A DNA stretch of 32,000 nt from Nitrosomonas europaea (lineage in GTDB: Bacteria; Pseudomonadota; Gammaproteobacteria; Burkholderiales; Nitrosomonadaceae), in assembly GCF_900167395.1 (NCBI RefSeq), contig NZ_FUWK01000004.1:30001-62000 (forward strand). The letters run 5' to 3'. Shown here in pieces: positions 7,226 through 24,308 of the stretch (the first letter of the stretch is position 1; each line of letters starts with the position of its first letter). The notes below the pieces were generated by a model. It was not told the origin of the DNA, ran no database searches, and was given only the letters and a program-made list of their open reading frames with translations. The translations under genes and the position numbers were made by a program.

Positions 7226-7385
7226 GCATATGCTCCAAATTTTATAATTGTCGTTCATTGACGCTGTACTGGGGGTAAGGTGCTGGCGCTTTATCGTTAC
7301 GTTTTCCAGTAGAGCATTACGTGCTTCATCAGTCCATTCAGGATGCCGGTGCAGTTGAACTTCCTGACCGACATCCTTTTGTACT

Positions 7386-8504
7386 TTATTCCAAGCCCAG
7401 ACTCTCCAGTGCTTTTTTGTGATCCCACTTTCCATGAAACAGACGACCTTTATGATCGGGTGTGCGATCACTGGTCCAGGTAATGTATTGACCATCCGGG
7501 GTAAATACCGGCAACCCGTCGAATCCTTCCTCGTCTGTTACCCGCACTGGTTCTTTCTTGCCATCGATATCGACGATATAGAGCTCGAAATTACGATGTC
7601 CATGAACGTTGGTTGCGAAAATGATGTATTGATTCGATGGATGATAAAAAGGCGCCCAGGACATTTTGTTGAGTCGGGTAATCTGTTTCTGATCCGATCC
7701 ATCGGTGTTCATAGTGAATATCTCCGCTTCCTGTCCGTTTTCCGAGAAACGTCGCCAGACGATTCTTTTTCCATCCGGGCTGAAAAATGGGCCACCATCA
7801 TAACTGTTGGTATGGGTTAATCTTTTTACATTGGAACCATCCGCATCCATAATGTAAATATCGATCATGGAAGAGGGGTCATTGCTGAAAAGTACAGTTT
7901 CTGCTTCGGATAGTGGTTCGCTGTAAGCTCTGCGATTGGAAGCAAAAGCAATCAGTCTACCATCAGGAGACCATGAAGCTTCTGCATCATAGCCTTTCGT
8001 ATGGGTTAGATTTCTGATGTTTCCGCCCGCAAAATCCGTTTCGTAGATATCATAAAACTCATCATAGTCCCAGGCATAAGATCGGCGCTGGCCGGATTTT
8101 CTCTGCTCGATTTCAGTAGTCATTTTGGCTTTTGCTTCAGGATCTTCATGTGTCGAGGAAAATAGTACTTTCTCCTGGATAGGATGCACCCATGAGCAGG
8201 TTGTTTTACCGATACCAGGTGAAACCTGTTGTACCTCTCCGCTTGCGATATTTTTCAGATAAATCTGATAAAAAGGATTTTCACCGGCGACTTCAGCCTG
8301 ATAAACCAGCCATTTGCCATCAGCACGATAGTAACCTTCACCAGATCTGACTTCCTGATCCGAAATTTGTTTGACATCGCTAATGAAACCGGCGGCACTT
8401 GCCTGTGTCATAGCAAAGAAGCAGGCAGCTGCCAGTAAATTGCGGGTAAGTGGCAAGCTGCCGGGAAAATTGATCGACTGTGTAAAATTTGTCATTTGGT
8501 TCAT
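7386..8504 (-). CDS. Periplasmic PD40/WD40-like beta-propeller protein (TolB-like)
   Basis: Signal peptide ending AMTQASAAG, and repeated SPDG(R/K)...F(A/S)S..(D/G) PD40-type repeats (SWSPDGRLIAFASNR, FFSPDGKRIVW, VFTPDGQYITW). Confidence 0.8.
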   Translation of the reverse strand: MNQMTNFTQSINFPGSLPLTRNLLAAACFFAMTQASAAGFISDVKQISDQEVRSGEGYYRADGKWLVYQAEVAGENPFYQIYLKNIASGEVQQVSPGIGKTTCSWVHPIQEKVLFSSTHEDPEAKAKMTTEIEQRKSGQRRSYAWDYDEFYDIYETDFAGGNIRNLTHTKGYDAEASWSPDGRLIAFASNRRAYSEPLSEAETVLFSNDPSSMIDIYIMDADGSNVKRLTHTNSYDGGPFFSPDGKRIVWRRFSENGQEAEIFTMNTDGSDQKQITRLNKMSWAPFYHPSNQYIIFATNVHGHRNFELYIVDIDGKKEPVRVTDEEGFDGLPVFTPDGQYITWTSDRTPDHKGRLFHGKWDHKKALESLGLE

Positions 8505-8664: not shown

Positions 8665-11600
8665 ATGACGAAATCAGCCAGACTCTTTTCCTTATGCTGC
8701 CTCATCGCAGTCAGCCTGTTTCACAGCATCAATGTATCAGCCAATGATCAAACTTTTCATCACCGGATGGAGGTAATTCTTTCACCTGATAATTCAGAAC
8801 TCCAGGTGAAAGATCAGATTCAGGTACCGAAAAATAATCTGAATCAGACTGCAGCCACTCGCCTGGAATTCAGTTTGCATGCCGGTTTGTCGATTATGGC
8901 AAACAAAGATGTGGATATCGTTGCTCAGACGGTAAATGAAGCCGATGTACACGCTGGCCCGGTACCATTGAAGCGATATATGGTAACCCTGCCTGCAGGG
9001 CAGAATACTTTTACTCTCACTTTCAGCGGGCGTATTCACCATGCTGTGCAGGACCCCAGTCTGGAATATGCACGCAGTTTCAGCTACTCGCCAGGATTGA
9101 TTTCCGCAGAAGGAGTATTTCTTGCCAATTCTACCGCCTGGTACCCTCAATTTGATGAAGGTATGGTGTCATTTAATCTGGATGTTCGGCTGCCAGCCGA
9201 TTGGGATGTTGTCAGTCAGGGCAGTCTGATACAGGAGCACATTACCGAAACCACTCGACGCGTTACTTGGGAAGAGAAAAAACCTCAGGATGATATTTAT
9301 CTGGTAGCCGGGCGTTATCAGCGTTATCAGCAATCCACCGGGCCGGTGGCAGCTTATGTTTATCTGCGCAGTCCGGATAAAGCGCTGGCGCAGAAATATC
9401 TGGATGCAACTGGACAATACATCGCTATGTACAGCAAGCTGATCGGGCCTTACCCCTATCCGAAATTTGCATTGGTCGAAAACTTCTGGGAAACCGGTTA
9501 CGGCATGCCGTCATTCACCCTGCTGGGACCAAAAGTCGTGCGTTTTCCGTTCATTCTGCACACTTCTTATCCACACGAGATTTTGCACAATTATTGGGGA
9601 AATGGCGTATTCGTCGATTACAGCAAAGGAAATTGGTCGGAAGGGTTGACAGCCTATCTGGCAGATCATCTCGTCAGCGAGCAGGGAGGTAAAGGTGAAG
9701 AATACCGCCGTGATGTGCTGCAGAAATACACGGATTTCGTGAACCAGGAAAAAGATTTTCCGATTGCCCGGTTCACTTCGCGTCACAGCCCCAGTTCAGA
9801 AGCGGTTGGCTATGGCAAAACCATGATGATGTTCCACATGCTGCGGCAGGAACTGGAAGATAAGGATTTCATCAGCGTATTGCGCAGCTTTTATAAACAA
9901 TACCAGTTCAAACAGGCAACTTTTGAAGATTTGCAAACGACTTTCAATACCCTTACCGGCAGAGATTTTTCTCCGTTCTTTCAGCAGTGGATATATCAGA
10001 GCGGTGCTCCCGATATCTCACTGGAAAGTGCGCAGGCTGAGCCCTGGAATCGGGGTTATCGGCTCAAAGCAATCATCAGGCAAACTCAGCCGGGTACACC
10101 TTATCAATTGACTGTGCCGATTGCGGTTCATCTGGAAGGAGAAACCGCTGCCTGGCAAACGCAGATTAAAATCGATCAGCCGGACAATATCATTGAACTG
10201 GATTTACCGGCACGCCCGGTACGTATCGATATCGATCCGCAGTTCGATGTATTCCGGCGCCTGGACAGCCGTGAAATTCCTGCCGCCTTGTCGCAAGGTT
10301 TCGGTGCGGAAAAACCATTACTGATTCTACCGGCCAATACCGGCAACGCGCAATTGTCGCAGGCGTATCAACTACTTGCTTCCACCTGGCAAAAAACTCA
10401 ATCCGGTTCGCTAAAAATCATCCGGGATGATCAATTGGAAGCGCTACCTGCAGATCGTACAGTCTGGATTCTGGGCTGGCAGAATAAATTCAGCAATCAG
10501 ATAATCGATACACTGTCAGAGCACGGCGTCGCCAGAAAAGAGGGTGAATTGCAGCTGGGAGGGCAGATCTATCAACAGGATAAACATGCCATCGTATTGA
10601 CGGCCCGTCAGTCGGCTAATCCTGCTTCAACGTTGCTGTGGGTGGCATCGGATCAGCCTGCAGCAATCACAGAGCTGGCCAGAAAACTGCCGCATTACCG
10701 CAAATACAGTTATCTGGTATTTGAAGATAGCGGTAAAAGTGAAGAACTGAACAACATCAATAAGGGCCAGTGGCCGGTAACTCGCTCTCCTCTGACACAA
10801 CTGGTCAAACAGAAGGATGATGCTTCATTTACCTCCAGTCACACCGGCACTCTGGCACCCCGTCATGCACTGGCAGAACTGCCACCGCTATTTTCCGAAA
10901 ACCGCATGCTGGAGGATATTACCTTGCTGGCCAGTGAGGTATTCAAGGGGCGCGAGCTGGGCAGCCCGGAACTGGACAAGGCAGCAGAATACATCGCGCA
11001 ACAGTTTCAGCAGGCGGGATTGCAGCCGGGCGGGGAAAGCGGGAGCTATTTTCAGATCTGGCAGCAGGATGTAGGGGCGCCAAAAGGAAAAATCACCTTG
11101 CGCAACGTCATTGGAATCCTGCCCGGCACCAATCCACAACTGGCAGAGCAGAGCCTGGTGATCGGTGCGCATTACGATCATCTTGGACTGGGCTGGCCGG
11201 ATGTGCGCGCAGCCAACCGTGGCAAGATTCACTATGGTGCAGATGATAATGCCAGCGGGGTAGCTGTCATGCTGGAATTGGCACGCCAGATCGCCACCCG
11301 GTGGCAACCGCAGCGCACCATCATTTTTGCTGCTTTTACCGGTGAAGAATCCGGGTTGCTGGGGTCAACCCATTATCTTGGCAATCCATCCGGTTATCCC
11401 ACCGAAAAAATCATCACCATGCTGAATCTGGATACAGTCGGCCGGCTCGGTAACAACCCAGTCACCGTATTTGGTACAGGTACAGCAAGCGAGCTGGTAC
11501 ATGTATTCCGTGGTGCCGGTTTTGTCACGGGCATTCCTGTCAATACAGTAGCGAATGATTTTGGTTCCGGTGACCAGACTGCCTTTATCAAGGCCGGGAT

Positions 11601-12081
11601 ACCGGCAGTTCAATTCTTTGGCAGCGCACACGAGGATTATCATGCACCCGGCGATACGGCCGATAAAATCGATGCTGCCGGGTTGATCAAAGTGGCTGCC
11701 ATCCTCAAGGAAGGTGCTGAGTATCTGGCCAACCGCCTTGAACCGCTGACGGTTACACTGGATGCTGGTAACCGATCATCCGACATGCCTCAGGCAACGG
11801 CCCAAACGAGAGATAAACGTAAAATCATCATCGGTACAGTCCCGGATTTTTCCTGGCAAGGAGAGGGTGTGCGTGTGGACGATATACTTCCTAATTCTCC
11901 AGCACAGCAGGCACAGTTACAGCAAGGCGACATCCTGATTCGGCTGGCAGGGCAATCCATTACCGATTTGAAGTCATACGCTGATATTCTGCGGGTGTTG
12001 AAAGCAGGAGAGAAAATCGAACTACAGTTCCGACGAGGAAAAGATATCAAATCGATTGAAATCGTACCAGTTGAGCGCTAA
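8665..12081 (+). CDS. Secreted multidomain metallopeptidase: M1 (gluzincin) domain + M28 aminopeptidase domain + C-terminal PDZ
   Basis: Signal peptide; HEILH...WSEGLTAY (M1 HExxH plus distal E); [25 protein letters not shown] and HAPGD (M28 metal ligands); a C-terminal PDZ-like [13 protein letters not shown]...GDILIRLAG. Confidence 0.85.
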
Positions 12082-14839: not shown

Positions 14840-15397
14840 ATGAAAACTGCTCAAGAACTTCGTGTAGGCAATGTGTTCATGCTCGGCAAAGACCCCATGG
14901 TCGTGCTGAAAACCGAATTTACCAAATCGGGACGCAATTCCTCAGTGGTAAAAATGAAGTACAAGAATTTGCTGACTGAATCGCCTGGTGAAGCTGTATA
15001 CAAAGCGGATGATAAATTCGATATAGTAGTGCTGGATAAGAAAGAGGTGAACTATTCCTATTTTGCCAGCCCGATGTACGTATTCATGGATGCTGAATTC
15101 AATCAGTATGAGGTTGAAGAGGAAACCATGAGTGATGCACTCAGCTTTCTGGAAGATGGTATGCCCTGCGAGGTTGTGTTCTACAACGATAAACCTATCT
15201 CAGTTGAATTGCCTAATACGGTTGTACGCGAGATCATTTACACCGAGCCCGCAATCAAAGGTGATACCACAGGCAAAGTACTGAAACCCGCAAAAATTCC
15301 TACTGGTTTTGAACTGGCGGTACCCTTGTTTTGTGAAATTGGCGACAAGATCGAAATCGATACCCGGACACGTGAATACCGCAGTCGCGTCAAGTAA
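14840..15397 (+). CDS. efp: Translation elongation factor P, Arg32 type
   Basis: Full-length EF-P. The loop KSGRNSS places Arg at position 32, the EarP substrate. Confidence 0.95.
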
Positions 15398-15436
15398 GTT
15401 TTAAATAATCCCAAAAACGTTTCTCCAGATCATCAT

Positions 15437-15468
15437 GCTCCGAATGACGTCCTTATCCCGTTCGGAGC
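15437..15468 (+). terminator. Hairpin downstream of efp
   Basis: GCTCCGAA (15437-15444) pairs with TTCGGAGC (15461-15468), followed by a T-containing tract. Confidence 0.45.
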
Positions 15469-15512
15469 AGATTCTGATTTATCAGATTAACTCGGCTTTT
15501 GCTGCTTATTTA

Positions 15513-15540
15513 ATTTCGTATAATGTATAAGCAATAAAAT
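15513..15540 (+). other. dif-like hybrid recombination site 1 (putative attL): intact XerC arm and core, degenerate XerD arm
   Basis: ATTTCGTATAA-TGTATA-AGCAATAAAAT. The first 17 nt are identical to the full dif at 17203; the XerD arm matches at 5 of 11 positions. Confidence 0.65.
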
Positions 15541-15776
15541 CAATGGCTTGCACAATTACAAAATTTCCAGGAGAAAAATTCAGAGGAAAATTAGCGCGTG
15601 AAAAATTTGCATTCATGATTTAAAAAATAGTTGATCGTTGAAAAAATATCCAGAAAAAGAGGCAGCAAGAATTTCACGCCAACCCCAAAAGGGGGGGCGG
15701 CGACGGATAAACGCGGCCAAGTGCTTGCCGCATCCGTCTACGCCTAAAAACCATAAACCCCGTTTTGCAGGGTGGT

Positions 15777-15840
15777 GGATGGGGGGCGAGCGGCAGCAAT
15801 CCCGAACCGTTACGGCGTAACCCGCGACGGAAAAAGCTGC
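15777..15840 (+). repeat. Intergenic motif, copy A (homologous to 17836-17902)
   Basis: The core CGTTACGGCGTAACCCGCGACGGAAAAAGCTGC (15808-15840) aligns with 17871-17902 at about 28 of 33 columns (hand alignment). The upstream G6-containing stretch also aligns. Confidence 0.6.
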
Positions 15841-16015
15841 AACCCACGATTACTGATGACCCGTAATCGCGGGAGTCGCTTATTTCCTGCTGGCCACAGA
15901 AAGGGCTTAAAACGCGATTTAAGCGATTTTCATCATTCCAACGCCTTCGGGGTGCTGCTCGATCGCTCTATCGCTGCGCTCATCGCTTCTCGCCGCACCC
16001 AGAGGCACAAACCGT

Positions 16016-16582
16016 TCATGGTGTATCCCCCTGAATGACCTTGACCGGAACCGAAGAGATCTCCCCGCAGATCCGATCAACCATGGACGCAAGGAAATTG
16101 AGGTGGACAGGCGTAAACGCCATACCATCTGGGGAGAGCAGACGACCGTCATGACACATCCAGCCGCGCCACGCATTACCGGGTAACGCAAACGGTACCA
16201 GTGCTGTTTCCCCAGAACCGACACGACGACGGTATTCCTTATCCCACATGCGGGCTTTGTCGATCGTCCAGTTAAGCGGGTAGAGATCGCCAGGAGTAAA
16301 GGTTTTGCCTTCAGGAGAAATCAATTTGTTACGTAGTAACATCCAGTTTTTCCACTCTTTACCGGGTAGTTCATAGCCCGTCAGGATACGAAGAAGCCGG
16401 AACGCGGCATACGGCATGTGAACCAAGCCGCGTTCCCAGTACTGGACAGTACGCAGTGAAACCCGAAGCATATCGGCAACCTGTTGCCGCGTAAGACCCG
16501 CCAGCAGCCTTGTTTCACGGATGGTGTCATAGTTCACAGGCTTGTACGGCTTGCGTTTGTAGTGGCGTTTACGCATGGCCAT
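16016..16582 (-). CDS. HTH regulator, DUF3653-like phage protein
   Basis: An AGGGGG SD lies before the ATG at 16582. HTH LTRQQVADMLRVSLRTVQYWERG is followed by two W-x2-W...L-x-SP-x-G-x2-FTP repeats. It is homologous to the ORF at 17402-17836. Confidence 0.7.
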   Translation of the reverse strand: MAMRKRHYKRKPYKPVNYDTIRETRLLAGLTRQQVADMLRVSLRTVQYWERGLVHMPYAAFRLLRILTGYELPGKEWKNWMLLRNKLISPEGKTFTPGDLYPLNWTIDKARMWDKEYRRRVGSGETALVPFALPGNAWRGWMCHDGRLLSPDGMAFTPVHLNFLASMVDRICGEISSVPVKVIQGDTP

Positions 16583-16787
16583 CCCCCTTGTGAAACTTGA
16601 GGCGGAAACGATGAAAACCCGATTTACGCGGTGGTCGAATATCAAGAGACGTAATGCACCAGATGTTGTGAGAATCCTTGAATCCCTTGATCCGACCTTC
16701 AGACAGCAATCGCCGAACACGCTGGGGAGTGATTCCATGAAAATTCGCAACATCCTGAACGGTGAAATATGAAATTTGAATATGCAT
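16569..16787 (-). CDS. Small excisionase/MerR-type HTH DNA-binding protein
   Basis: YFTVQDVANFHGITPQRVRRLLSEGRIKGFK...W matches the excisionase-family HTH pattern. It overlaps the next gene by 14 nt. Confidence 0.6.
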   Translation of the reverse strand: MHIQISYFTVQDVANFHGITPQRVRRLLSEGRIKGFKDSHNIWCITSLDIRPPRKSGFHRFRLKFHKGDGHA

Positions 16788-16914
16788 CTAACCCCCCGAA
16801 ATCCGTTGAAAATATGCTGTTTGAATAATTTCAAGGCTAAAAACCTGAAAACCCAGTCTGGGAGCGGGTTTGGAGTGCTTTAAAACCGGAGAAAAATGGA
16901 CAGAATTGGCAGTA

Positions 16915-16941
16915 ACTTTACGTGTTACTGGCACGTAAAGT
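16915..16941. repeat. 10-bp-stem hairpin, copy A (same hairpin as 22811-22837)
   Basis: ACTTTACGTG-TTACTGG-CACGTAAAGT. With two flanking bases, the 29-nt TAACTTTACGTGTTACTGGCACGTAAAGT occurs exactly twice in the window. A T-run follows on the + strand. Confidence 0.8.
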
Positions 16942-16947
16942 TTTTTC

Positions 16948-17157
16948 TCAATCGCTGTCCCGGTTAACGAAGTTCTCCAGGGAACCATACTCAAGTTTGA
17001 TTTCAAGCATGGCCAGCCGACACGGCAACCACAGGAAGAAATTGATCCAAAACTGCTTGAAACCAAGTCGTTCCATAGCCTTGATGAGCCAGGATGAAAA
17101 GGAACTGTTGATAAGCGCACAGAACAGGCCGCCATAGCGGTTTTTTTGATTTGACAT
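16948..17157 (-). CDS. Hypothetical small protein (69 aa)
   Basis: Strong AAGGAGG SD upstream of the ATG at 17157, and the ORF ends just before the conserved hairpin. The function is unknown, and alternative overlapping frames exist (16788-17135). Confidence 0.35.
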   Translation of the reverse strand: MSNQKNRYGGLFCALINSSFSSWLIKAMERLGFKQFWINFFLWLPCRLAMLEIKLEYGSLENFVNRDSD

Positions 17158-17202
17158 AATGCATTTCCTCCTTTGTTTTCGTACCGGCGGCACGAGCATT
17201 GT

Positions 17203-17230
17203 ATTTCGTATAATGTATATTATGTTAAAT
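17203..17230 (+). other. dif: Complete chromosomal dif site (XerC arm - core - XerD arm)
   Basis: ATTTCGTATAA-TGTATA-TTATGTTAAAT. The core and XerD arm are identical to the E. coli dif 28-mer GGTGCGCATAATGTATATTATGTTAAAT; the XerC arm matches at 7 of 11 positions. Confidence 0.85.
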
Positions 17231-17314
17231 AGAAGATGCAGAGAACGAAGGAAGAAATTCAGAAGGAAGGCAGATTACATCGCTGATCTAATCTATAGAT
17301 TGCTGACCCCTTTC
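17231..17314 (+). repeat. dif-flank module, copy at site 2 (homologous to 23625-23712)
   Basis: It shares AGGAAGGCAGATTA (identical 14-mer), CTGATCT, (A/T)AGATT and GCTG-CCC-TT-C blocks in the same order at nearly the same distance from the dif core (33 vs 34 nt). Confidence 0.65.
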
Positions 17315-17331
17315 GGACCATTAAGGCTCGC

Positions 17332-17383
17332 GTGCTGACAGTACCAGCACTTTTTGATACCCGCCACGCGCGGGTATTTTTTT
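17332..17383 (+). terminator. Two tandem hairpin plus T-run terminators
   Basis: GTGCTG/CAGCAC (17332-17350) followed by TTTTT, then ATACCCGC/GCGGGTAT (17356-17376) followed by TTTTTTT. Confidence 0.55.
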
Positions 17384-17401
17384 GTCCGGAGAAAAATAAA
17401 A

Positions 17402-17836
17402 ATGGATGATCTGATATACGGTATTAGCGTTGAAGTATTACAGGAAATCACAGGTGAAGAGCTGCGAGTGATCAAACAATGGAAGAAAGGCACGAGAAAG
17501 CCATCAGAATCGGCAATAAGGCTGATAAATCTATTTGTGCATGGCAAGGCATGTGCATTATTAGGAAATAGCTGGAATGGCTTCTATTTCAGAAATGGAA
17601 AATTATTTGTTCCTGAATGGCGTAATGGATTCTCGGCCGGGGAAATACGCACCCTGTTCTTTCGGTGTCAGCTGGTTGTGTATCTGGAAAGTGAGATCAG
17701 ATTATTAAAGGCAGAGCTGGAGCGCAGAAACCTTGACATCGAAGAGTTGGAAATAAAGGCAGACTTCTACAGGCGGCAAATCAGCACAGAGAGCAAGTTC
17801 GGGATGATGCTGGAAAGATGCTTCGGGGTTATGTAG
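17402..17836 (+). CDS. DUF3653-like phage regulator
   Basis: LRVIKQWKKGTRKPSESAIRLI...W-x-GF...NGKLFVPE...FSAGEI aligns with the 16016-16582 protein. It has a coiled-coil-like C-terminus. ATG at 17402 is preferred. Confidence 0.6.
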   Translation: MDDLIYGISVEVLQEITGEELRVIKQWKKGTRKPSESAIRLINLFVHGKACALLGNSWNGFYFRNGKLFVPEWRNGFSAGEIRTLFFRCQLVVYLESEIRLLKAELERRNLDIEELEIKADFYRRQISTESKFGMMLERCFGVM

Positions 17837-17902
17837 GAATACGGGGGGTGTGATAGCGCGTCAGGTCAGGCGTTACGGTGAGACCCGCGACGAAAAATCT
17901 GC
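17836..17902 (+). repeat. Intergenic motif, copy B (homologous to 15777-15840)
   Basis: CGTTACGGTGAGACCCGCGACGAAAAATCTGC (17871-17902) plus the upstream ACGGGGGG stretch. It lies in the non-coding gap downstream of zot. Confidence 0.6.
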
Positions 17903-18074
17903 GTTGCGCCGGTACCCTAAAACCAACACCGGGTCCGGCGGCCTCGATATTTTCTGCTGGACAAATGAGAACCGCCAGAGGGCGAACCAACTGGCGGCTA
18001 TGATCATCATTTTTGAATCGGGCAATGGAGGTACAAATCACCCGGATATGGTATCGGCGGCAATCCGCAGGACT

Positions 18075-19061
18075 TTAGACTTTTGTCTCTTGACCAGGCC
18101 AACCGCTCGACACTGCCTTGCGGCAGGTCTCCGGAGGGACGACAAGGCGCTCCGCGCTCTTGCCGTAGCAGATGCATTTGGCTTGCGTTGCCACGCAAGC
18201 CCCTACTTTAGACCAATCAATCTGATCAGATACAAGGGCAAGAGTAACGGGACGGGCAACAGTTGTGACGGTTGTTACTGGGGCCGATGTTAATTTTTGC
18301 TGGGATAAATGAGGGTCATCCGTCTTTTGTTCATCCTTGACAACTTTTGGAGATTCTGATGATTTTGAATCAAGGAAACGATCCTTGAAGGTGAAACCCG
18401 TATAGATAAGTGCGAAGAAAGCAATCGGTACAACGTAAGCCATGAGAGGTTTACGACGTTTCTGCGTAATATGCATGCTAGCTGATCTGTAGAGTCCGTA
18501 AGCTTCTTTCGGTAGCTCGTAACGCTGTGATACTGCCTTGAGTTTGCTACTTGTGGCCCTGACTGTTGCGCAGTATTCAGGCCATTCGTAACGCTTCCTG
18601 CCATGCCAGTCTGAAAGCATATGAATGTGCTTATCGACTACTGCCAGCACATTCTTATGTATCAACTGAGGTGCCTGAGTAATCAGGACAAATTCCAACC
18701 CGTGATGGCGATGTTTGGTTAAGTATTTGATGTCTTCTCCGGGCTCCCTGGAACCAGAGGCTGGCCAAAGATACTGAACCTCATCAATTACGATAAGTGC
18801 ACCCTCAGTAATGTTCTGCAACCGCGAGGGTTTTTCATCGTCAGGAATCGGAATACCAGATGGGTTTTCAACCTCGACAAGTTCCCTGTCAGCCCATCTT
18901 TTCACCTGGCTATAACTCAGGGAAATTGCCGGGAGTTTGAGTTCAGGAATCCCGGCGGTGTAAACAACTCTATCGGCTTCAACAGCGGGCTTGATGATGT
19001 TCCAGACAGCAAAAATTGTTTTACCCGCACCCGGTGCGGCAGTAATTAAAGTAATGCTCAT
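18075..19061 (-). CDS. Zot/pI-like filamentous phage assembly ATPase
   Basis: N-terminal Walker A AAPGAGKT, Walker B-like LIVIDEVQ, one TM segment (AYVVPIAFFALIYTGFTF) and a C-terminal periplasmic part. There is a 4-nt ATGA overlap with the upstream gene. Confidence 0.85.
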   Translation of the reverse strand: MSITLITAAPGAGKTIFAVWNIIKPAVEADRVVYTAGIPELKLPAISLSYSQVKRWADRELVEVENPSGIPIPDDEKPSRLQNITEGALIVIDEVQYLWPASGSREPGEDIKYLTKHRHHGLEFVLITQAPQLIHKNVLAVVDKHIHMLSDWHGRKRYEWPEYCATVRATSSKLKAVSQRYELPKEAYGLYRSASMHITQKRRKPLMAYVVPIAFFALIYTGFTFKDRFLDSKSSESPKVVKDEQKTDDPHLSQQKLTSAPVTTVTTVARPVTLALVSDQIDWSKVGACVATQAKCICYGKSAERLVVPPETCRKAVSSGWPGQETKV

Positions 19062-19348
19062 TTGTTGAGAACACCAAGTGTTTTACGCTGTACCTGAAAA
19101 GCAACCCGAAAAGTGATAGCGGCTGTAACGATACCAAGGCACTGACCAAGGCCAGCAAGGTTAGCAAGATTCGCAACGGAAGATGGCAACCCGAAGTATT
19201 GAGTTTGCATGTAAGTCAGTGCAGCACCTACGCTGACCGTGAGGCCCGCATAGCTGATAACCCCGATACCCAGCGATGTAAGTACACGTACAGCAAGCGG
19301 CCCGGCAGCAGCTTCGAGAAATGCGCCCAGCGGGATAAGTATGTTCAT
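19058..19348 (-). CDS. pVI-like minor virion protein (DUF2523-like)
   Basis: 96-aa polytopic hydrophobic protein directly upstream of zot, the conserved inovirus position. Confidence 0.65.
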   Translation of the reverse strand: MNILIPLGAFLEAAAGPLAVRVLTSLGIGVISYAGLTVSVGAALTYMQTQYFGLPSSVANLANLAGLGQCLGIVTAAITFRVAFQVQRKTLGVLNK

Positions 19349-19405
19349 GTTGTTAATCTCATCAAAATATTAAAAGCATGTTCTTCTGCTAGTCGTAAGT
19401 GGTAG

Positions 19406-20731
19406 TTAAGTGCCAGCGCGAGATATGCCGGCAACAATAAACATCGCGGCAACAGATGCAAAAAGCACAAAGATCGGCCGCAACTGCACAGCTGTATCAC
19501 AGGCTGGTTGCCAACTGACAGGAAAAGTCACGCCCTGAACGGTAAGTATTTCATCCGGCGGACATGTCCCCTCCCCCCAGGATTCCGGAGTCTGCAAATT
19601 AAACTCTGGTTGTTCTTCTTCAAGTTGAGCTGGCGGAACATCATCAAACGATACGGTAGTTTCATCGGTGCCAGTTTTGGGCGGCGAGTTATCAGAGGTT
19701 GAAGTCTGAGTGTTGGTGATTTCGTTGTTTTCGTTGTAAGTCGTGATCGTGGTAACTTCGGTCACGTTATAAGTAACGTTATTGGTTGTGCTGGTATCTT
19801 CGACCTTGACAGATGTGGTTGCAACTTGTGTGCCGGTGATGTTGCCCTGGGCATCTTTGGTTTGTGTGGATGTCTGGGCAATCTGCTGGATTACGGGGGC
19901 AGATTGGGTTGAGGCCAAAACCGGGACGGGGGCATCAGAGTTATAGAGGGCTTCGGCGGTTTGTTGGGGTTGGGCATTGAGCTTGGTTTCAGCGTCTGTC
20001 CAGTGCGTTTCAGTAACAGGCACGGGGGCATTGTTGTGTACGCACTCGTTGCCAACTTTGGTATATCCAGTAAAGCAATTTCCACTGTTGACTTTGACGA
20101 TTGAGTAATTAGGGGGCGCTGTTTCTGTTGGCGGATTGTTAGTCTTGTCGGAGTAGATGCAATAAGAGGTACCGCCAGAGACTTCTACACGTAAGAACGT
20201 CAGATTATTCGGGGCGAAATGGACTGCCGCGCGGTAATCAAAACTTTTACAAAGAAGGTCTGCTGTAACGTGAGTCAAGCTAACATAAAACGGATGACGC
20301 CAGTAACCCGTTTCGGTGGTTACTGGGTAACCAGCCGGCATATCAGGGGCATATTCAATCTCACCCGATTGGGAATTTCGGCAGATATCAGTAAGGTCAC
20401 AAACGGTATCATAGAGAGCAATTGCGGTACCAATTGCCGGTAGAGTTTTTAGAAACCGGGTTGCGGCTTTTCCGACTTTTGAGGGTTCAACCGGAAAGGT
20501 TTTTTCAACCGGGACGAGAAATTGACCTTTTGAGGTGTTGACGGGGATATCTTTGGATATGCCGGCATTGGGATATGCGAGCGAGGTTCCACCGCCGGGG
20601 CGTTGTATATGTACCTCACCATCAATGACTTTAACGTTCGGATACGGATCGTGAAATTCGTAGGCGGAGACGACGGGAACGTAGAAAACGCCGAGTATGG
20701 CGCAGACGATCAGCTTCCGAACAGTATCCAT
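19406..20731 (-). CDS. pIII-like receptor-binding/adsorption protein
   Basis: Signal peptide, an N-terminal Cys-containing domain, a long Thr/Asn/Gln-rich low-complexity linker and a C-terminal TM anchor (IFVLFASVAAMFIVAGI). Its position is between the coat genes and the pVI-like gene. Confidence 0.7.
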   Translation of the reverse strand: MDTVRKLIVCAILGVFYVPVVSAYEFHDPYPNVKVIDGEVHIQRPGGGTSLAYPNAGISKDIPVNTSKGQFLVPVEKTFPVEPSKVGKAATRFLKTLPAIGTAIALYDTVCDLTDICRNSQSGEIEYAPDMPAGYPVTTETGYWRHPFYVSLTHVTADLLCKSFDYRAAVHFAPNNLTFLRVEVSGGTSYCIYSDKTNNPPTETAPPNYSIVKVNSGNCFTGYTKVGNECVHNNAPVPVTETHWTDAETKLNAQPQQTAEALYNSDAPVPVLASTQSAPVIQQIAQTSTQTKDAQGNITGTQVATTSVKVEDTSTTNNVTYNVTEVTTITTYNENNEITNTQTSTSDNSPPKTGTDETTVSFDDVPPAQLEEEQPEFNLQTPESWGEGTCPPDEILTVQGVTFPVSWQPACDTAVQLRPIFVLFASVAAMFIVAGISRAGT

Positions 20732-20784
20732 GTCGATCCCAATATAGCGAGCAAAACATAAAGAGCGTTTGGATCATCAAACAT
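20710..20784 (-). CDS. Candidate 24-aa hydrophobic peptide (g7/g9-like small coat protein)
   Basis: An AGGAG SD lies 6 nt before the ATG at 20784, which is 2 nt after the upstream stop. The peptide is MFDDPNALYVLLAILGSTWILFGS. It overlaps the start of the pIII-like gene and is below the ORF-track length cut-off. Confidence 0.3.
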   Translation of the reverse strand: MFDDPNALYVLLAILGSTWILFGS

Positions 20785-20786
20785 AA

Positions 20787-21101
20787 TCAACTCCTGATAA
20801 CTTCAGCGACTTTTTTAGCCATGTAAGCAACAACCCAAGCGCCCGCGATAAGCCAGGCTGCATCAATAGCATCATGCATTTGTGCGTTAGGGTCACAAGC
20901 GATCTGTTGCGGTATGTAATCAGTGCTTACTGGTACGGGTATTAAGCCAGTATTCGTACGTGTGATAACGATCTTGTCGGTAGACGGGACACACCGGATT
21001 GTGTATGCCCCGTCCGGGGAAACAGTCGGGCAATTACCGGCAATCTCTTGATGGAGGTCAAGAGTTGTGGAATAGCATTTGCCTTGGTAGTAATTGCCCA
21101 T
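20787..21101 (-). CDS. Hypothetical minor virion protein
   Basis: 104 aa with a C-terminal TM plus basic tail (AAWLIAGAWVVAYMAKKV). It lies between the major coat and pIII-like genes. Confidence 0.5.
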   Translation of the reverse strand: MGNYYQGKCYSTTLDLHQEIAGNCPTVSPDGAYTIRCVPSTDKIVITRTNTGLIPVPVSTDYIPQQIACDPNAQMHDAIDAAWLIAGAWVVAYMAKKVAEVIRS

Positions 21102-21113
21102 TTGATCAGCCTC

Positions 21114-21317
21114 TTAGAATACTCTGGTGATCCATTTCCAAACTTTGATGCCAACAACGATGGTAATTACCAAAGCGCCAGCAGCAGCAATATCAGCTTT
21201 AGCCGCTGTAATAGCCGTTGTCACATCTTCGGGCAAATCGGCACGTGCAGATGCGGCGAAAAGTACCAGCGGGGATGCGTAAGCAGCATTGGTCAGGCGC
21301 TGTTTAAAGTTTTTCAT
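21114..21317 (-). CDS. Inovirus major coat protein (pVIII-like)
   Basis: Signal peptide ...FAASARA. The mature ~41-aa protein has an acidic N-terminus (DLPED), a hydrophobic core and a basic C-terminus (KVWKWITRVF). A GGAG SD is present. Confidence 0.8.
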   Translation of the reverse strand: MKNFKQRLTNAAYASPLVLFAASARADLPEDVTTAITAAKADIAAAGALVITIVVGIKVWKWITRVF

Positions 21318-21396
21318 TTGTTACTCCTATTTAAAGTTAAAGAAAGGCGGCATGCGTAATACACACCCCCCAACCCCGCAGGCTGGGGGCTGGGTA

Positions 21397-21702
21397 CTAC
21401 CGGGCAGGAGATGCAGCAGCCGGGACGGGTCGAAGAGCATTGATCACCGTCTTGGGGCCTTTATTGCTGGATAAGGTCAGAAACTCGACTTCGCAAACCA
21501 GTGGGAAATCGTGATTCATTAAGGCTTTGGCTTCTTTGGATGATGCGAGCGGATAAGCTGTAGTCGAAGACCCTTTGGCAGTGCCTTTTCTGAAATCAAG
21601 CAGATGTTCGATAAACACCTTGCCTGAATCAATATGTTTTCCATCATCAAGGGTTCCGTCAAAAAACGTGATTCCGGTCACTTTTACTTTTTCAATTGCC
21701 AT
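21397..21702 (-). CDS. Putative ssDNA-binding protein (pV-like), assigned by position only
   Basis: 101-aa soluble ORF between Rep and the coat gene, the usual pV slot. I recognised no diagnostic motif. Confidence 0.45.
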   Translation of the reverse strand: MAIEKVKVTGITFFDGTLDDGKHIDSGKVFIEHLLDFRKGTAKGSSTTAYPLASSKEAKALMNHDFPLVCEVEFLTLSSNKGPKTVINALRPVPAAASPAR

Positions 21703-21766
21703 TTGTTTTTCCTTACGCCTGTTGAATGCCTGTTCCGGATGTGGCGGATAAACCCGGGGCAGAAAA

Positions 21767-22774
21767 TTAACCGTAGTTCTGGATGTACCAGTCGGGAGCC
21801 GTGAGTGGCTTGAGTTCTACAACGCGAACCCTTGAGGGAAGATGGTGAACGTTGTTCGGGATGGAGATATCAACGCCGTAGGCGAGTAATTCAGTGCGGT
21901 GACGATAGCGAGTAGCCCTACTGATATCTAACGGAAGCCCTAATTTCCAACTGGCATAAGTCGATCGAAGATGCTTCGGAAGATCGTTAAAGTTTTCGTA
22001 TTTCATGTCCTCTAACCTCTGAAGTTGTGTGCGGTCGGCGTATATCTGATTGAGATTGTCTTGTGTGATTGCGCCTAGATAAGCAAGGTTGTTTTGTAAA
22101 AGGAAGCGGGATTTAAGGGTGAATTCTTCCCGAAGAATGCCTTCGGTTTTGCAGTAGTCGATGACGTCATCAGAGACGTGTGAGCCGGATTTCTTGGAAC
22201 GATGCTTTTCCAGTTCTTGATATTTGGCGTAGAGCTTGCCGTAGACGTATTTAGACCCCCTGCCGTATTCAACCGTCCCGGAATCAGGAGACAGTGAACC
22301 TTTTTGACGGCCAACATGCTGGCCTGCCATGTGGCAAAGGACGGCATGCATGGATTCTTTGGAGCCAGTGCTGTAATTACAGGTCAGATCGATGCGGGAG
22401 ACACGAGCGCCTGACCATGACCAGCCGGTATCAGCGAATTTATAGAGCTTGCCGGATGTGAACGGCGGCAGACCCAGAAGCGACAGCAGATCGTTAATGC
22501 GGGCAATCGTTGTCGGCCAATCATATCCAAAAAGATTGTCACGACGGCCATAGCGGGAAATGTTACCGGTGAATTCAACCGTATTGCCATCGCAGCGAAC
22601 CTGAACGCGGGAATCATACGAACCTTCAATGATGCAGCGCACATCGGTTGAATATTCGATCTCACCATCCGCATCAACTTTGAGAACTTTTCCATCATTC
22701 AGAACCGGCAGACCCCCGCCAAAATACTCCTGACGGATGGTCACGTAGTCGATGAAAACCGGGGAAGTTTCCAT
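21767..22774 (-). CDS. Rolling-circle replication initiator (gene II/X, RstA-like, Rep_trans family)
   Basis: The IDYVTIRQ N-terminal motif, the size and a KLYAKYQE motif resemble Rep_trans proteins of CTX/Cf-type inoviruses. The ATG at 22774 lies 2 nt after the upstream stop; the track start at 22789 is a TTG. Confidence 0.7.
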   Translation of the reverse strand: METSPVFIDYVTIRQEYFGGGLPVLNDGKVLKVDADGEIEYSTDVRCIIEGSYDSRVQVRCDGNTVEFTGNISRYGRRDNLFGYDWPTTIARINDLLSLLGLPPFTSGKLYKFADTGWSWSGARVSRIDLTCNYSTGSKESMHAVLCHMAGQHVGRQKGSLSPDSGTVEYGRGSKYVYGKLYAKYQELEKHRSKKSGSHVSDDVIDYCKTEGILREEFTLKSRFLLQNNLAYLGAITQDNLNQIYADRTQLQRLEDMKYENFNDLPKHLRSTYASWKLGLPLDISRATRYRHRTELLAYGVDISIPNNVHHLPSRVRVVELKPLTAPDWYIQNYG

Positions 22775-22776
22775 GG

Positions 22777-23115
22777 CTAAAATGAGCAAAAAGTCTCACC
22801 GGTGAGACTAACTTTACGTGTTACTGGCACGTAAAGTATTTTTTGCCCTTCGCTTCCCCTTCCCTCACTCCTCGCTGGCGCTCGTCGTTCGGTCTGGTTG
22901 CGCTCGGTTTGATAGTAGAAATCGAGAACGGTTAGAAGGTTGAAAATCTGGCCGGGTGGCAGCGAACTGGTGTCGTCGAGTGCGGAGAGATAGCAGCGGG
23001 CGGCGAAGTGGTTGCCGGGTTTGGTGATATTGCGGAGTAGAAAGCCAAAAATACTGTACTGCAATGACAATTGATTAAGTGCCGGATATGGCGTAATACC
23101 TGATTCTGTAAGCAT
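22777..23115 (-). CDS. Hypothetical protein (112 aa), first gene of the leftward operon
   Basis: Strong GGAGG SD 5 nt before the ATG at 23115, and the stop is coupled to the rep ATG. Its 3' part is encoded by the two palindromes, so the true extent is uncertain. Confidence 0.4.
   Translation of the reverse strand: MLTESGITPYPALNQLSLQYSIFGFLLRNITKPGNHFAARCYLSALDDTSSLPPGQIFNLLTVLDFYYQTERNQTERRAPARSEGRGSEGQKILYVPVTRKVSLTGETFCSF
22792..22837. repeat. Perfect 18-nt palindrome plus the conserved 10-bp-stem hairpin, immediately upstream of rep
   Basis: AGTCTCACCGGTGAGACT (22792-22809) is followed by ACTTTACGTG-TTACTGG-CACGTAAAGT (22811-22837). The latter is the same hairpin as at 16915-16941. Confidence 0.8.
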
Positions 23116-23141
23116 TTTTCCTCCACATTGAATGACCCTGT

Positions 23142-23170
23142 TTGACTTGTGGAATTAAGAACCCTAGAAT
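23142..23170 (+). promoter_or_regulatory. Sigma70-like promoter for the repressor gene
   Basis: TTGACT, a 17-nt spacer, then TAGAAT. It overlaps face-to-face with a leftward TTGATG-16 nt-TATTCT candidate (23193-23166). Confidence 0.45.
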
Positions 23171-23243
23171 ATTGGGGTAATTTCACGCATCAAATTTAAT
23201 GCAGATATTAAGCGCATCAAAACCAATGCGTCAAGGAGAAAAA

Positions 23244-23621
23244 ATGAACGAACTTAAAAAATATATAGAAACCGGAACAGAAAAGGCCGGAACACAGAAA
23301 GAACTAGCAAAAATTATAGGAATCGCTGACGCAAACTTGAGAACAGCTAAATCAGGAATCAGAGGATTACCAATTGAGGTTTGTATACAGCTAGCAAATT
23401 ACCTCAAAGAAGACGAATTGAAAGTAATACTGGCAAGCGAAATGGTCACTGCAAAAGATGAGAAGAAGAGAAAAATATTAGAAAGCTGCATGCAAAAGTC
23501 AAAAGAAAGAATAAGCGCAATGATTGTAGGCGGCTTAGTTATTTCAATGCTAACCCTCTCCCCGCTTGAGTCTGCAGAAGCAAAAGTCGTTGAAAATCAG
23601 GATTCTATGTATATTATGTAA
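23244..23621 (+). CDS. XRE/Cro-C1-type HTH repressor candidate with a hydrophobic C-terminal segment
   Basis: An AAGGAG SD lies before the ATG at 23244. HTH TQKELAKIIGIADANLRTAKSG. It is divergent from the rep operon and visibly AT-rich. The stop codon lies inside the dif-like site. Confidence 0.65.
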   Translation: MNELKKYIETGTEKAGTQKELAKIIGIADANLRTAKSGIRGLPIEVCIQLANYLKEDELKVILASEMVTAKDEKKRKILESCMQKSKERISAMIVGGLVISMLTLSPLESAEAKVVENQDSMYIM

Positions 23622-23624
23622 AAT
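23597..23624 (+). other. dif-like hybrid recombination site 3 (putative attR): degenerate XerC arm, intact core, near-perfect XerD arm
   Basis: TCAGGATTCTA-TGTATA-TTATGTAAAAT. The XerD arm matches site 2 at 10 of 11 positions; the XerC arm matches at 2 of 11. Confidence 0.6.
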
Positions 23625-23712
23625 TAATTGCAAGAAATGCTATAGACGCTATAGAAAGAGGAAGGCAGATTATCTTTCTGATCTGCTTTACAGATTATTG
23701 CTGGCCCTTTTC
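23625..23712 (+). repeat. dif-flank module, copy at site 3 (homologous to 17231-17314)
   Basis: Same ordered blocks as copy 2, including the identical AGGAAGGCAGATTA at 23659-23672. Confidence 0.65.
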
Positions 23713-23816
23713 AAATCACTTGAATCAGAACTGCGTGGATATTATTGTCTGTTGCATGGCCTTTGTGGCATTCTGCTTATATCAAATGAAACGGGGGAAA
23801 ATTCGAGGAGTTGACA

Positions 23817-24308
23817 ATGAACTATTATACTTTTCTGGAAAGTCCTGTGGATCGACTGTTACTCACGAGTGATGGTGAGTTTCTTACAGGCGTGTATATG
23901 GAAATAGAGATACAGAAACTGCTGCCTCGCATGACAGATGACTGGCGGCAGGATGCCGCCCCTTTCGCAGAGGCGATTGCTCAGTTGAATGCTTATTTCG
24001 CGGGGGAACTGATTCAGTTTGATCTGCCCATGAAAGCGACTGGCACACCATTTCAGGAAGCGGTTTGGCAATCACTTAGCACTATTCCCTATGGTGAGAC
24101 TGTCAGTTATAAAAATATCGCAGAACGCCTGCACTTACCCAAGGCCGCACGTGCAGTGGGTATGGCCAATGGTCAGAATCCCATTTCGATCATTATCCCC
24201 TGTCATCGTGTTATCGGTGCCAATGGCAAGCTGACAGGTTATGGGGGGGGAATTCATCGTAAACAGTGGCTGCTGGCACATGAAGACAAGCAAACTTCTT
24301 TTGCCTGA
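23817..24308 (+). CDS. ogt: Methylated-DNA--protein-cysteine methyltransferase
   Basis: PCHRVIG active site and a GAGGAG SD 6 nt before the ATG at 23817 (the track start is a TTG at 23811). Confidence 0.9.

Follow-up and report, generated by a model that had tools for sequence, protein, structure and literature searches.

RS1 and TLC-phi are known satellites of filamentous phages, and each of them retains its own replication initiator. TLC-phi, the toxin-linked cryptic satellite of V. cholerae, is about 4.7 kb long and integrates at dif by means of the host XerCD recombinases. Its attP combines a degenerate XerD arm with a central region identical to that of dif, it encodes an XafT-type activator (HTH plus DUF3653), and a functional dif is left on one side of the integrated element. 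TLC-phi shares an array with a filamentous prophage and lacks morphogenesis genes, but it encodes a Rep of its own, Cri (PF05144). RS1, the satellite of CTX-phi, has no coat or assembly genes and lies in tandem with its helper at dif. It carries rstA (Rep), rstB, rstR and rstC, has long homology to CTX-phi (about 3 kb) and shares the origin and regulatory region of its helper, with matching alleles.

Two further systems bear on the comparison. Ff miniphages and phagemids are replicated and packaged wholly in trans and depend on a short region of adjacent hairpins that serves as origin and packaging signal, of which the f1 intergenic region is the established example. Miniphages originate as deletion derivatives of the helper, are devoid of genes and do not integrate. 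Laboratory mini-TLC plasmids (attP and xafT on a non-replicating vector) are artificial constructs delivered by conjugation, with no phage-origin cassette.

We analysed a window of 32,000 nucleotides from Nitrosomonas europaea ATCC 19718 in which a mini-element of 1.7 kb (1.69 kb; 15541-17202) adjoins a filamentous prophage. A first-pass annotation had likened the mini-element to RS1 and TLC-type satellites. This parallel stands as far as retained cis-sites and absent coat genes are concerned: the mini-element has no coat or assembly genes and shares cis-sites with its candidate helper. RS1 and TLC-phi, however, have their own Rep, whereas the mini-element has no initiator of the RstA or Cri kind and is therefore not a satellite of their type. 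Moreover, it shares only about 65 nt and about 90 nt with the phages, unlike the long homology between RS1 and CTX-phi. We regard it as a strong candidate for a minimal phage satellite, though not a proven one.

The mini-element has three ORFs, all leftward. By family score, the 188-aa protein (16016..16582, minus strand) is an XafT-family Xer activation factor: it reaches 173.1 bits against NCBIfam NF040522 (the VC1465 family, cutoff 70), and Pfam finds HTH_31, HTH_3 and DUF3653 (E = 2.6e-30), arranged as an N-terminal XRE-type HTH and two DUF3653 stretches. The second protein, of 72 aa (16569..16787, minus strand), overlaps the xafT start by 14 nt and is probably a small DNA-binding protein of the excisionase/MerR-like HTH_17 type. 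It scores 24.4 bits against HTH_17, slightly below the cutoff of 27, and E = 0.009 against the excisionase model, while its relatives in two other loci clear the HTH_17 cutoff (28.8 bits in L018 and 27.5 in L120). Its AlphaFold model is modest (pLDDT 69.5), and the fold search returned weak matches only (Xis, BldC and a P2 DNA-binding protein, E about 0.5-1.4). The third, a 69-aa ORF (16948..17157, minus strand) with two hydrophobic stretches, has no family match in the domain search. Its homologues are confined to N. europaea and N. eutropha. The reading frame is undamaged in all variants, with conservation in the C-terminal half. The gene content previously described is upheld.

As the first-pass annotation had stated, replication and morphogenesis genes are absent: ORF and family searches of 15541-17202 gave no homologue of Rep, ssDNA-binding, coat or Zot proteins. 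There is also no Phage_CRI or G2P match in the mini-element, no ORF long enough for a rolling-circle initiator, and no integrase-like ORF or recombinase family match within these coordinates. An AT-rich non-coding block adjoining the left junction (15541..15680) is kept among divergent mini-elements (alignment of the window with L110, L109, L001, L124 and L121) and may act as a promoter or assist Xer recombination as an accessory site. The 244-281 aa 'ORFs' found 3' of xafT in L105 and L121 look spurious and were set aside as conserved non-coding DNA. No DNA similarity to INPHARED phages or E. coli genomes was found for the mini-element, an Rfam scan of 15300-23800 returned nothing, and the similarity between the flank of the mini-element and that of the chromosomal dif is not significant.

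Because the DUF3653 protein belongs to the XafT family, TLC-phi is the closest parallel and the integration mechanism can be named. The mini-element differs from TLC-phi in having two DUF3653 stretches in its XafT and a betaproteobacterial nitrifier as host, as well as in lacking a Rep. Its minimal content for Xer integration and excision is the same as that of the mini-TLC plasmids. In V. cholerae, a plasmid that cannot replicate integrates at about 10^-1 when it is given just xafT and attP, and the reaction also runs in reverse (bioRxiv 10.64898/2026.06.12.731946; PMC6744903).

The junctions fit such a mechanism. Site 1, the left junction (15513..15540, plus strand), reads ATTTCGTATAA TGTATA AGCAATAAAAT, with ATTTCGTATAA as XerC arm, TGTATA as central region and AGCAATAAAAT as degenerate XerD arm; it is identical across all N. 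europaea loci that bear the mini-element. At the same position, the empty sites (L112, L115 and L118) have ATTTCGTATAA TGTATA TTATGTAAAAT. Site 2 (17203..17230, plus strand; ATTTCGTATAA TGTATA TTATGTTAAAT) is a full and functional dif at which the right end of the mini-element meets the left end of the prophage, and it is the dif listed for N. europaea ATCC 19718 (PMC2731167). Its XerD arm derives from the phage; loci with the mini-element only have the host XerD arm TTATGTAAAAT there. Site 3, at the far end of the prophage (23597-23624), reads TCAGGATTCTA TGTATA TTATGTAAAAT.

By comparing empty, mini-only and doubly occupied loci, we derived the anatomy of the att sites. Empty loci have a single dif, and in occupied loci site 1 and site 2 are exactly 1690 bp apart. 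The attP of the mini-element, reconstructed from the junctions as ATTTCGTATAA TGTATA AGCAATAAAAT, combines a perfect XerC arm and a degenerate XerD arm around a central region that is the same as that of dif. The same element is found at dif in N. eutropha-like genomes, next to a different flank and with the host central region TTTACA, which the attP follows. Related XafT elements of 1.4-2 kb in other species have the same asymmetric sites. The mini-element is located at dif with a clean empty site in relatives, has the attP anatomy and an XafT-family gene, and lacks a recombinase of its own, features that characterize a TLC-type IMEX. From these sequence comparisons, the assignment of the mini-element as a TLC-type integrative element that would integrate at dif is well supported.

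The neighbouring inovirus prophage (17231..23624, minus strand) is the candidate helper. Its genes include a DUF3653 gene (17402-17836, plus strand), zot (18075-19061), rep (21767-22774) and a repressor-like gene (23244-23621, plus strand). Its ends are confirmed by a circular relative, L131, with attP TCAGGATTCTA TGTATA TTATGTCAAAT; this phage genome, whose Rep is 94% identical, thus exists in nature as a circle. With its repressor gene at one end and its DUF3653 gene at the other, the prophage, not the mini-element, matches the layout of CTX-I type inoviruses, which end with rstR and xafT. The DUF3653 protein of the prophage falls below the XafT family cutoff (27.5 bits versus 70) and could instead be similar to PSB15, the packaging-signal-binding DUF3653 protein of Xanthomonas phages.

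Mini-element and prophage share two features, which, as had been claimed, agree in order and in orientation with respect to the leftward genes. The first is the 29-mer TAACTTTACGTGTTACTGGCACGTAAAGT, confirmed as an exact repeat with two copies in the window (16913-16941 and 22809-22837, both on the plus strand). No match was obtained in 100 shuffles, and none is expected in 32 kb. Its core is hairpin 1 (16915..16941, minus strand), which reads ACTTTACGTG CCAGTAA CACGTAAAGT on the gene strand and has a 10-bp stem and a 7-nt loop. The 27-nt hairpin of the prophage (22811-22837) begins 36 nt 5' of the rep start codon (ATG at 22774), in agreement with the earlier description of a hairpin just 5' of rep. 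In every N. europaea variant of the mini-element hairpin 1 is invariant (27/27), and its flanks vary. More distant XafT mini-elements (L105, L107, L120-L124) do not have hairpin 1, so an element of this type can exist without it.

Among 185,579 species genomes, 12 contain the hairpin, with one copy in each, and 6 IMG/VR contigs contain it as well. The contexts are mostly inoviruses, and nearly every copy belongs to an inovirus or a small integrated element. About half of the contexts have the hairpin just 5' of a rep gene whose product shares 34-64% identity with the Rep of the window. A scan anchored on Rep added 24 relatives with the hairpin 30-170 nt upstream of rep. Judged by this distribution, the hairpin is a module of an inovirus clade, usually located 30-170 nt 5' of rep. 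The stem covaries (92.7% of cells paired, three pairs changed on both sides), with a score reached by none of 500 shuffles. Within the loop, positions G, T and A are invariant and a G-T step is kept.

In M13, two neighbouring loops are recognised by pII, which nicks within the first of them (PMC11765958), and RstA of CTX-phi nicks between G and T of the apical loop (PMC4439123). The architecture, the covariation, the G-T of the loop and the orientation all fit an Ff-type (+) origin, although the mini-element of the window has no separate second hairpin. By this analogy, the cassette 5' of rep is probably the (+)-strand origin and the recognition site of Rep, and it possibly contains the packaging signal as well. 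On its plus strand the 29-mer resembles an intrinsic terminator, with a T-run after the hairpin. We rejected this as the general role of the hairpin and of hairpin 2, given that other phages have A-runs or mixed sequence after their hairpins.

Directly after the hairpin lies a hypervariable patch of about 30-34 nt, which in the window is allele D (16881..16914, minus strand; gene strand TACTGCCAATTCTGTCCATTTTTCTCCGGTTTTA). An A-run, the 27-nt hairpin and the patch of about 34 nt together make up a cassette of about 65 nt (16881-16946). The Nitrosomonas inoviruses have this cassette immediately 5' of rep. At least five patch alleles (A-E) occur among mini-elements, and sequence matching pairs each of the five main ones exactly or closely with a local phage. 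Allele A is identical to the patch of the ATCC 19718 prophage (22793-22810), allele B matches phage L114, allele D matches the circular phage L131 at 33 of 34 positions, and alleles C and E resemble the second modules of L131 and of L128/L130. In ATCC 19718 itself, the mini-element has patch allele D and the adjacent prophage allele A. Such mosaic patches show recombination between mini-elements and phages. Chimeras joined at the hairpin, with a mini-element left flank and a phage right flank, were not seen in about 25 contexts.

The second shared feature, motif 2 (15808..15893), had been described as a motif of roughly 65 nt. Its core indeed aligns with 28 of 33 columns identical (15808-15840 versus 17871-17902; blastn E = 0.002), with a local score of 39 compared to a mean of 18.3, a standard deviation of 2.3 and a maximum of 28 in shuffles; the motif as a whole actually consists of two conserved blocks over about 86-90 nt and corresponds to 17871-17960 in the prophage. 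Block 1 reads CGTTACGGCGTAACCCGCGACG(G)AAAA (15808-15840). Block 2 is ATTTCCTGCTGG at 15882-15893; this short block (ATTTYCTGCTGG) is found at both 15882-15893 and 17949-17960, which places it 74 nt past the first block in the mini-element and 78 nt past it in the prophage. All close mini variants and two of the phages retain motif 2. Block 1 is kept, for example, in L124 (XafT 76% identical) and in the N. eutropha-like L125, and in phage L114 it lies about 35 nt past the stop of the DUF3653 gene. Motif 2 is absent from more distant hairpin-bearing phages. Searches of IMG/VR viral contigs returned neither XafT nor motif 2, although a 1.7-kb element is hardly expected in that catalogue.

The explanation we favour, with a confidence a little short of even, is that the mini-element is a satellite of the local filamentous phages that has neither Rep nor capsid genes, integrates in the TLC manner and borrows the Rep and capsid of its helper. 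The XafT-family protein would activate host XerD independently of FtsK and recombine attP with the chromosomal dif, leaving a crippled site 1 on the efp side and a full dif (site 2) on the other side. The reverse reaction would free a circle of 1.69 kb, for which we predict the junction ...GCATTGTATTTCGTATAATGTATAAGCAATAAAATC... (also given as ...GGCACGAGCATTGTATTTCGTATAATGTATAAGCAATAAAATCAATGG...). The Rep of a co-resident or superinfecting phage could then nick the excised circle and start rolling-circle copying, and the resulting single strand could leave the cell by way of phage coat and Zot-type assembly proteins. Regulation or recognition is the probable task of the small HTH protein, of the 69-aa ORF and of motif 2. 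Replication and packaging wholly in trans, which we infer here, is what Ff miniphages do, and like them the mini-element would depend on a short origin and packaging region. Unlike them, it has three conserved genes of its own and an integration system.

An unlikely but substantial alternative is that the mini-element integrates by itself and is not mobilised by phages at all. The cassette would be the promoter, operator or leader region of rep, and it would either put the HTH-xafT operon under phage-type control or titrate a phage factor; the element would spread only vertically, by transformation or by homologous exchange. The cassette does lie directly 5' of the HTH-xafT operon as it does 5' of rep, no other sigma-70-like promoter is predicted in the mini-element outside the cassette region, and in phage I2-2 an ACGTG...CACGT palindrome precedes gene II by about 20 nt. 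A palindromic operator would also explain the covariation of the stem as well as a hairpin does, and no exact match to a circular or tandem junction of the mini-element was found in JGI metagenome contigs. Nonetheless, in four loci (L013, L014, L019 and L020) the hairpin sits after zot or next to dif, far from rep, and keeps its orientation relative to the rep strand, and in L018 it is downstream of the xafT and HTH genes. Such a conserved asymmetric loop would be unusual as the spacer of a dimer operator. In addition, L109 and L117 have identical HTH and XafT proteins with different patch alleles, so the patch is not an operator of the mini-element's own proteins.

More improbable in our view is that the mini-element persists owing to an action of its XafT on other elements at dif, where the protein would promote, reverse or interfere with inovirus integration, the shared sequences being by-products of recombination in IMEX arrays. 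[quoted passage not shown] The recombination seen in the patches agrees with this reading, as does the polarity of the att sites: those of mini-element and phage are opposite, so the two always bracket the active dif, whichever arrived first. Since either order gives the observed arrangement, we withdrew an order of integration with the mini-element first and the phage second. What this leaves unexplained is the 27/27 identity of the hairpin and the conservation of motif 2 in solitary mini-elements. PADLOC gave no meaningful defence match, and no defence family was matched. An action of XafT on other elements would be compatible with the satellite model and does not exclude it.

Sequence comparison largely refutes the alternative offered in the first-pass annotation, a decaying deletion remnant of a filamentous prophage, which we now consider very improbable. 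The mini-element has the same layout as the prophage, from small ORF through hairpin and genes to motif 2, and has no Rep or structural genes, but its similarity to phages is limited to two short islands and its att polarity is opposite to theirs. Genomes with identical EF-P show four states of the locus: empty, mini only, mini and phage, and phage only. Among 18 places recorded (10 are shown, and 8 similar ones are not), mini only is the commonest state (about 10), followed by empty (3), mini and phage (3) and phage only (2). The element is therefore alone at dif in most sampled genomes and absent from others, and it is conserved from N. europaea to N. eutropha-like genomes. Apart from L110, in which the HTH start is unclear, the variants examined all have three intact ORFs. 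Between XafT alleles dS is 0.23-0.28 and dN/dS is 0.07, pointing to purifying selection. The extended phage homology, disrupted genes and relaxed selection of a defective prophage are thus not found, and these comparisons support a discrete unit that varies independently of the prophage rather than a piece of it. Finally, we discount a generic repetitive extragenic palindrome that is shared by coincidence, despite the terminator-like plus strand, given two copies in the window against none expected and single copies in the 12 species genomes that have it, nearly always in an inovirus or small integrated element.

We therefore return to a satellite that borrows the replication and export functions of its helper. 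A broader proposal, which we put forward more tentatively still, is that the 1.4-2 kb elements of Nitrosomonas and related betaproteobacteria are the smallest self-integrating satellites known. They would encode only an Xer activation factor and one to three small proteins and would parasitise filamentous phages through a swappable origin/packaging cassette, the patch alleles tracking the specificity of the circulating phage. The hypothesis is directly testable, since the mini-element is found in the type strain of a model nitrifier beside a candidate helper and natural strains cover all four states. To our knowledge, inovirus origins are essentially unmapped outside Ff, CTX-phi and Xanthomonas phages, and the matching of alleles between mini-elements and phages provides a natural system for the recognition of origins by inovirus Rep proteins. 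If the satellite reading is true, "integrate by yourself, borrow everything else" would mark a lower limit of what a phage satellite needs, and Xer activation factors would support very small mobile elements well outside Vibrio.

Between efp (14840-15397) and ogt (23811-24308), we found three dif-like sites in the window: site 1 at 15513-15540 (ATTTCGTATAA TGTATA AGCAATAAAAT), site 2 at 17203-17230 (ATTTCGTATAA TGTATA TTATGTTAAAT) and site 3 at 23597-23624 (TCAGGATTCTA TGTATA TTATGTAAAAT). The window is from N. europaea ATCC 19718, with 100% identity to AL954747.1 over 20.5 kb, and site 2 is the dif listed for this strain (PMC2731167). Sites 1 and 2, spaced 1690 bp, bound a mini-element (15541-17202), and sites 2 and 3 bound an inovirus prophage of 6394 bp (17231-23624) with rep, ssDNA-binding-like, coat, pIII-like, pVI-like and zot genes and, at opposite ends, a repressor-like gene and a DUF3653 gene. 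As described in the first-pass annotation, the mini-element has three leftward ORFs (69 aa, a 72-aa HTH protein and a 188-aa protein with HTH and DUF3653), lacks any Rep, coat or Zot homologue, and shares two cis-elements with the prophage. One is a 29-mer, exact at 16913-16941 and 22809-22837 and matched in 0 of 100 shuffles; its 27-nt core is hereafter hairpin 1, which forms a cassette with the variable patch beside it. The other, motif 2, agrees at 28 of 33 columns (15808-15840 versus 17871-17902; blastn E = 0.002).

The 188-aa protein (16016-16582) scores 173 bits (cutoff 70) against NCBIfam NF040522, entitled 'VC1465 family Xer recombination activation factor', VC1465 being XafT of TLC-phi. 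This factor combines HTH and DUF3653 and activates XerD without FtsK; at attP sites with a degenerate XerD arm, integration is reversible and XafT-driven (PMC6744903; PMC9226527; bioRxiv 10.64898/2026.06.12.731946). When rebuilt from its junctions, the mini-element attP has a perfect XerC arm, a dif-identical central region and a degenerate XerD arm, which is the anatomy used by XafT of TLC-phi. It is firmly supported that the mini-element is a self-integrating TLC-type IMEX with a XafT-family activator. Within the proposed RS1/TLC parallel, TLC-phi is the nearest system; since the element has no Rep, it is not an RS1/TLC satellite in the strict sense.

The XafT homologue in the window contains two DUF3653 stretches (WKNWM..LISPEGKTFTP and WRGWM..LLSPDGMAFTP), and most relatives, with lengths of 137-148 aa, have one. 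The DUF3653 protein of the prophage scores only 27.5 bits against NF040522 and may differ in kind; PSB15, a DUF3653 protein of Xanthomonas phages, binds the packaging-signal hairpin.

The inovirus attP (in the prophage, L131 and L022) combines a degenerate XerC arm (TCAGGATTCTA) with a dif-identical central region and a canonical XerD arm, a polarity opposite to that of the mini-element. Consequently, mini-element and phage always flank the active dif, whichever integrates first. We know of no description of this opposite polarity for an IMEX class. About 50 nt beside the phage XerD arm (17264-17314) resemble the host dif-side sequence (23659-23712; score 43, shuffle mean 16, sd 2.2). This stretch also occurs in L131, a circular phage genome, and is thus genuine phage DNA; it could have been captured from the host flank or could function as an accessory sequence. 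On the + strand, just before the prophage DUF3653 gene, a pair of terminator-like hairpins (17332-17385) falls inside the host-flank-resembling segment.

Among contigs coding for an identical EF-P, comparison of junction sequences revealed all four locus states: empty, with a single dif ATTTCGTATAA TGTATA TTATGTAAAAT (L112, L115, L118); mini-element only (L109, L110, L111, L117 and the metagenome contigs L001, L002, L004); mini-element plus phage (L113, L116); and phage only, of a different variant (L114). The mini-only state is commonest (about 10 of 18, including similar places not displayed). Despite the identical host EF-P, xafT of the mini alleles shows a dS of 0.23-0.28 with a dN/dS of 0.07, and none of the three ORFs is disrupted in any examined variant, apart from an unclear HTH start in L110. 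N. eutropha-like genomes carry the same element at dif, between ada/ogt and cysG, with a 69-82 aa ORF, hairpin, HTH, XafT and motif 2; its degenerate arm AGCAATAAAAT is identical and its central region, TTTACA, is that of the host. It is firmly supported that the mini-element is polymorphic within N. europaea and that N. eutropha-like genomes share it. The alternative that it is an in-situ deletion remnant is ruled out by the four locus states, the xafT dN/dS, the intact ORFs and this wider occurrence. Distant XafT elements of 1.4-2 kb lie at dif with the same asymmetric site pair in other bacteria (L105, L107/L108, L120-L124). XafT elements of very small size are thus a recurrent type.

Next, we investigated the distribution of hairpin 1. 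The pattern ACTTTACGTG-N7-CACGTAAAGT is found in 12 of 185,579 species genomes, one copy each, and in 6 IMG/VR contigs of 6-12 kb. Most contexts are inoviruses, and about half have the hairpin a short way 5′ of a Rep 34-64% identical to that of the window. A Rep-anchored IMG/VR scan (alignment A1) added 24 relatives with hairpin variants 30-170 nt upstream of rep. In an alignment of 22 distinct versions, 92.7% of stem cells are paired and both partners have changed in three stem pairs (from U-A to G-C at two positions); the observed covariation is reached by 0 of 500 shuffles. The loop is asymmetric with invariant G14, T15 and A17, and most phages have a conserved TAGT and a second, sequence-variable hairpin after it. 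As single-stranded DNA, the cassette folds with z-scores of -4.4 (mini-element) and -4.6 (prophage). In L013 and L014 the hairpin lies after zot, 57-58 nt from dif, with its rep-strand orientation unchanged, and this orientation is likewise kept in L019 and L020, which speaks against a mere rep operator.

Other hairpin contexts carry additional genes. In L012 (a Sulfuritalea MAG, about 4400-7680), an island of ~3 kb beside tRNA-Pro has hairpin 1 and no Rep, along with a tyrosine integrase, an HTH_17 protein and a protein related to the 72-aa HTH protein. This island may represent another type of Rep-less element with the inovirus hairpin. In L023 (a Sulfuricellaceae MAG, 5387-6215), a BrnT/BrnA-like toxin-antitoxin pair separates a full dif from hairpin 1. 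In L013 (2979-6138), ~3 kb of prophage cargo with a DNA adenine methylase-like gene separates zot from the hairpin, which is 58 nt from dif.

The Rep of the window (21767-22774) presumably belongs to the same Pfam family as RstA of CTX-phi. RstA nicks an apical loop between G and T (PMC4439123), the M13/f1 origin has two hairpins side by side and is nicked in a loop (PMC11765958), and in phi-Lf the origin and packaging-signal hairpins adjoin within about 110 nt. By analogy with these three arrangements, the cassette is probably a (+)-strand origin, perhaps plus a packaging signal.

The hairpin is identical in every N. europaea mini variant, and the ~30 nt past it in gene direction are hypervariable. 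Allele A (TAGTCTCACCGGTGAGAC; minis L109, L003-L005) is identical in the ATCC 19718 prophage (59 nt at 98%), allele B (TAGTCTCATTT(T/C)GCGCA...; L110, L125) has its counterpart in phage L114, and allele D (TACTGCCAATTCTGTCC...; the window, L111, L001) matches phage L131 at 33 of 34. Alleles C (TAGTCCGGTGGATCGGAA; L117, L132, L133) and E (TAGTCCCATTTTTGGGAC; L126) resemble second modules of L131 and of L128/L130 on the phage side. L109 and L117 have identical HTH and XafT proteins with different patches, so the patch is not the operator of those minis. Outside the cassette and motif 2, no similarity between mini-element and phage is detectable. Two short conserved islands in otherwise unrelated DNA, together with the cassette-like sharing of alleles, are expected of cis-sites that phage proteins must recognise. 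The cassette is exchanged between mini-elements and phages, and it is well supported that the mini-element retains, under constraint, cis-elements of local inoviruses.

L131 is a circular assembly of 6618 nt with a 99-nt terminal repeat and a Rep 94% identical to that of the window. Its attP, TCAGGATTCTA TGTATA TTATGTCAAAT, confirms the prophage ends, and its circularity shows that such phages exist off the chromosome. Before rep, L131 (JAANMW010006318.1, about 4760-4930 rep-sense) has three tandem origin-like modules (hairpin 1 with patch D, GTAAAGT with a C-like patch, GTAAAGT with patch A), which suggests repeated recombination or aberrant initiation/termination at ...GTAAAGT/TAGT. In L114, a 23-nt tandem repeat (11500-11629; 5.7 copies, 99% matches) separates the DUF3653 gene from zot. 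The Rep of this phage has 79% identity to that of the window, while there is no relationship for Zot (21%) or the pIII-like protein (26%); these phages are thus mosaics with a shared replication/lysogeny module and differing structural modules.

The motif 2 core scores about nine sd above shuffles, and there is a second block, ATTTYCTGCTGG, 74 nt beyond it in the mini-element and 78 nt in the prophage. The block CGTTACGGCGTAACCCGCGACG is kept in close mini variants, L124 (76% identity in XafT) and the N. eutropha-like element among them, and in phage L114 lies about 35 nt past the DUF3653 stop, the same position as in the window's prophage. Motif 2 was found neither in more distant phages nor in IMG/VR. 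Candidate roles are a DUF3653-protein binding site, a packaging signal or a (-)-strand origin; the likeness of its ACCCGCG core to the Xanthomonas packaging-signal consensus GGX(A/-)CCG(C/T)G is only loose.

Several observations count against the satellite reading. There is no circular junction of the mini-element in JGI contigs, no copy in viral contig collections, and no mini/phage chimera joined at the hairpin was seen. The resident mini-element has a patch unlike that of the neighbouring prophage and no separate second hairpin, and hairpin 1 is absent from distant XafT mini-elements. Separately, a phage study of ammonia oxidisers described an apparent filamentous particle in one lysate, with no genome assembled; its pipeline removed host-mapping reads, ATCC 19718 being among the hosts, so reads of the resident inovirus and mini-element would be discarded too (bioRxiv 10.64898/2026.05.02.722434). 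We infer that the shared cis-elements are origin or packaging sites and that replication and packaging of the element would take place in trans. The mini-element may work like a natural, self-integrating phagemid.
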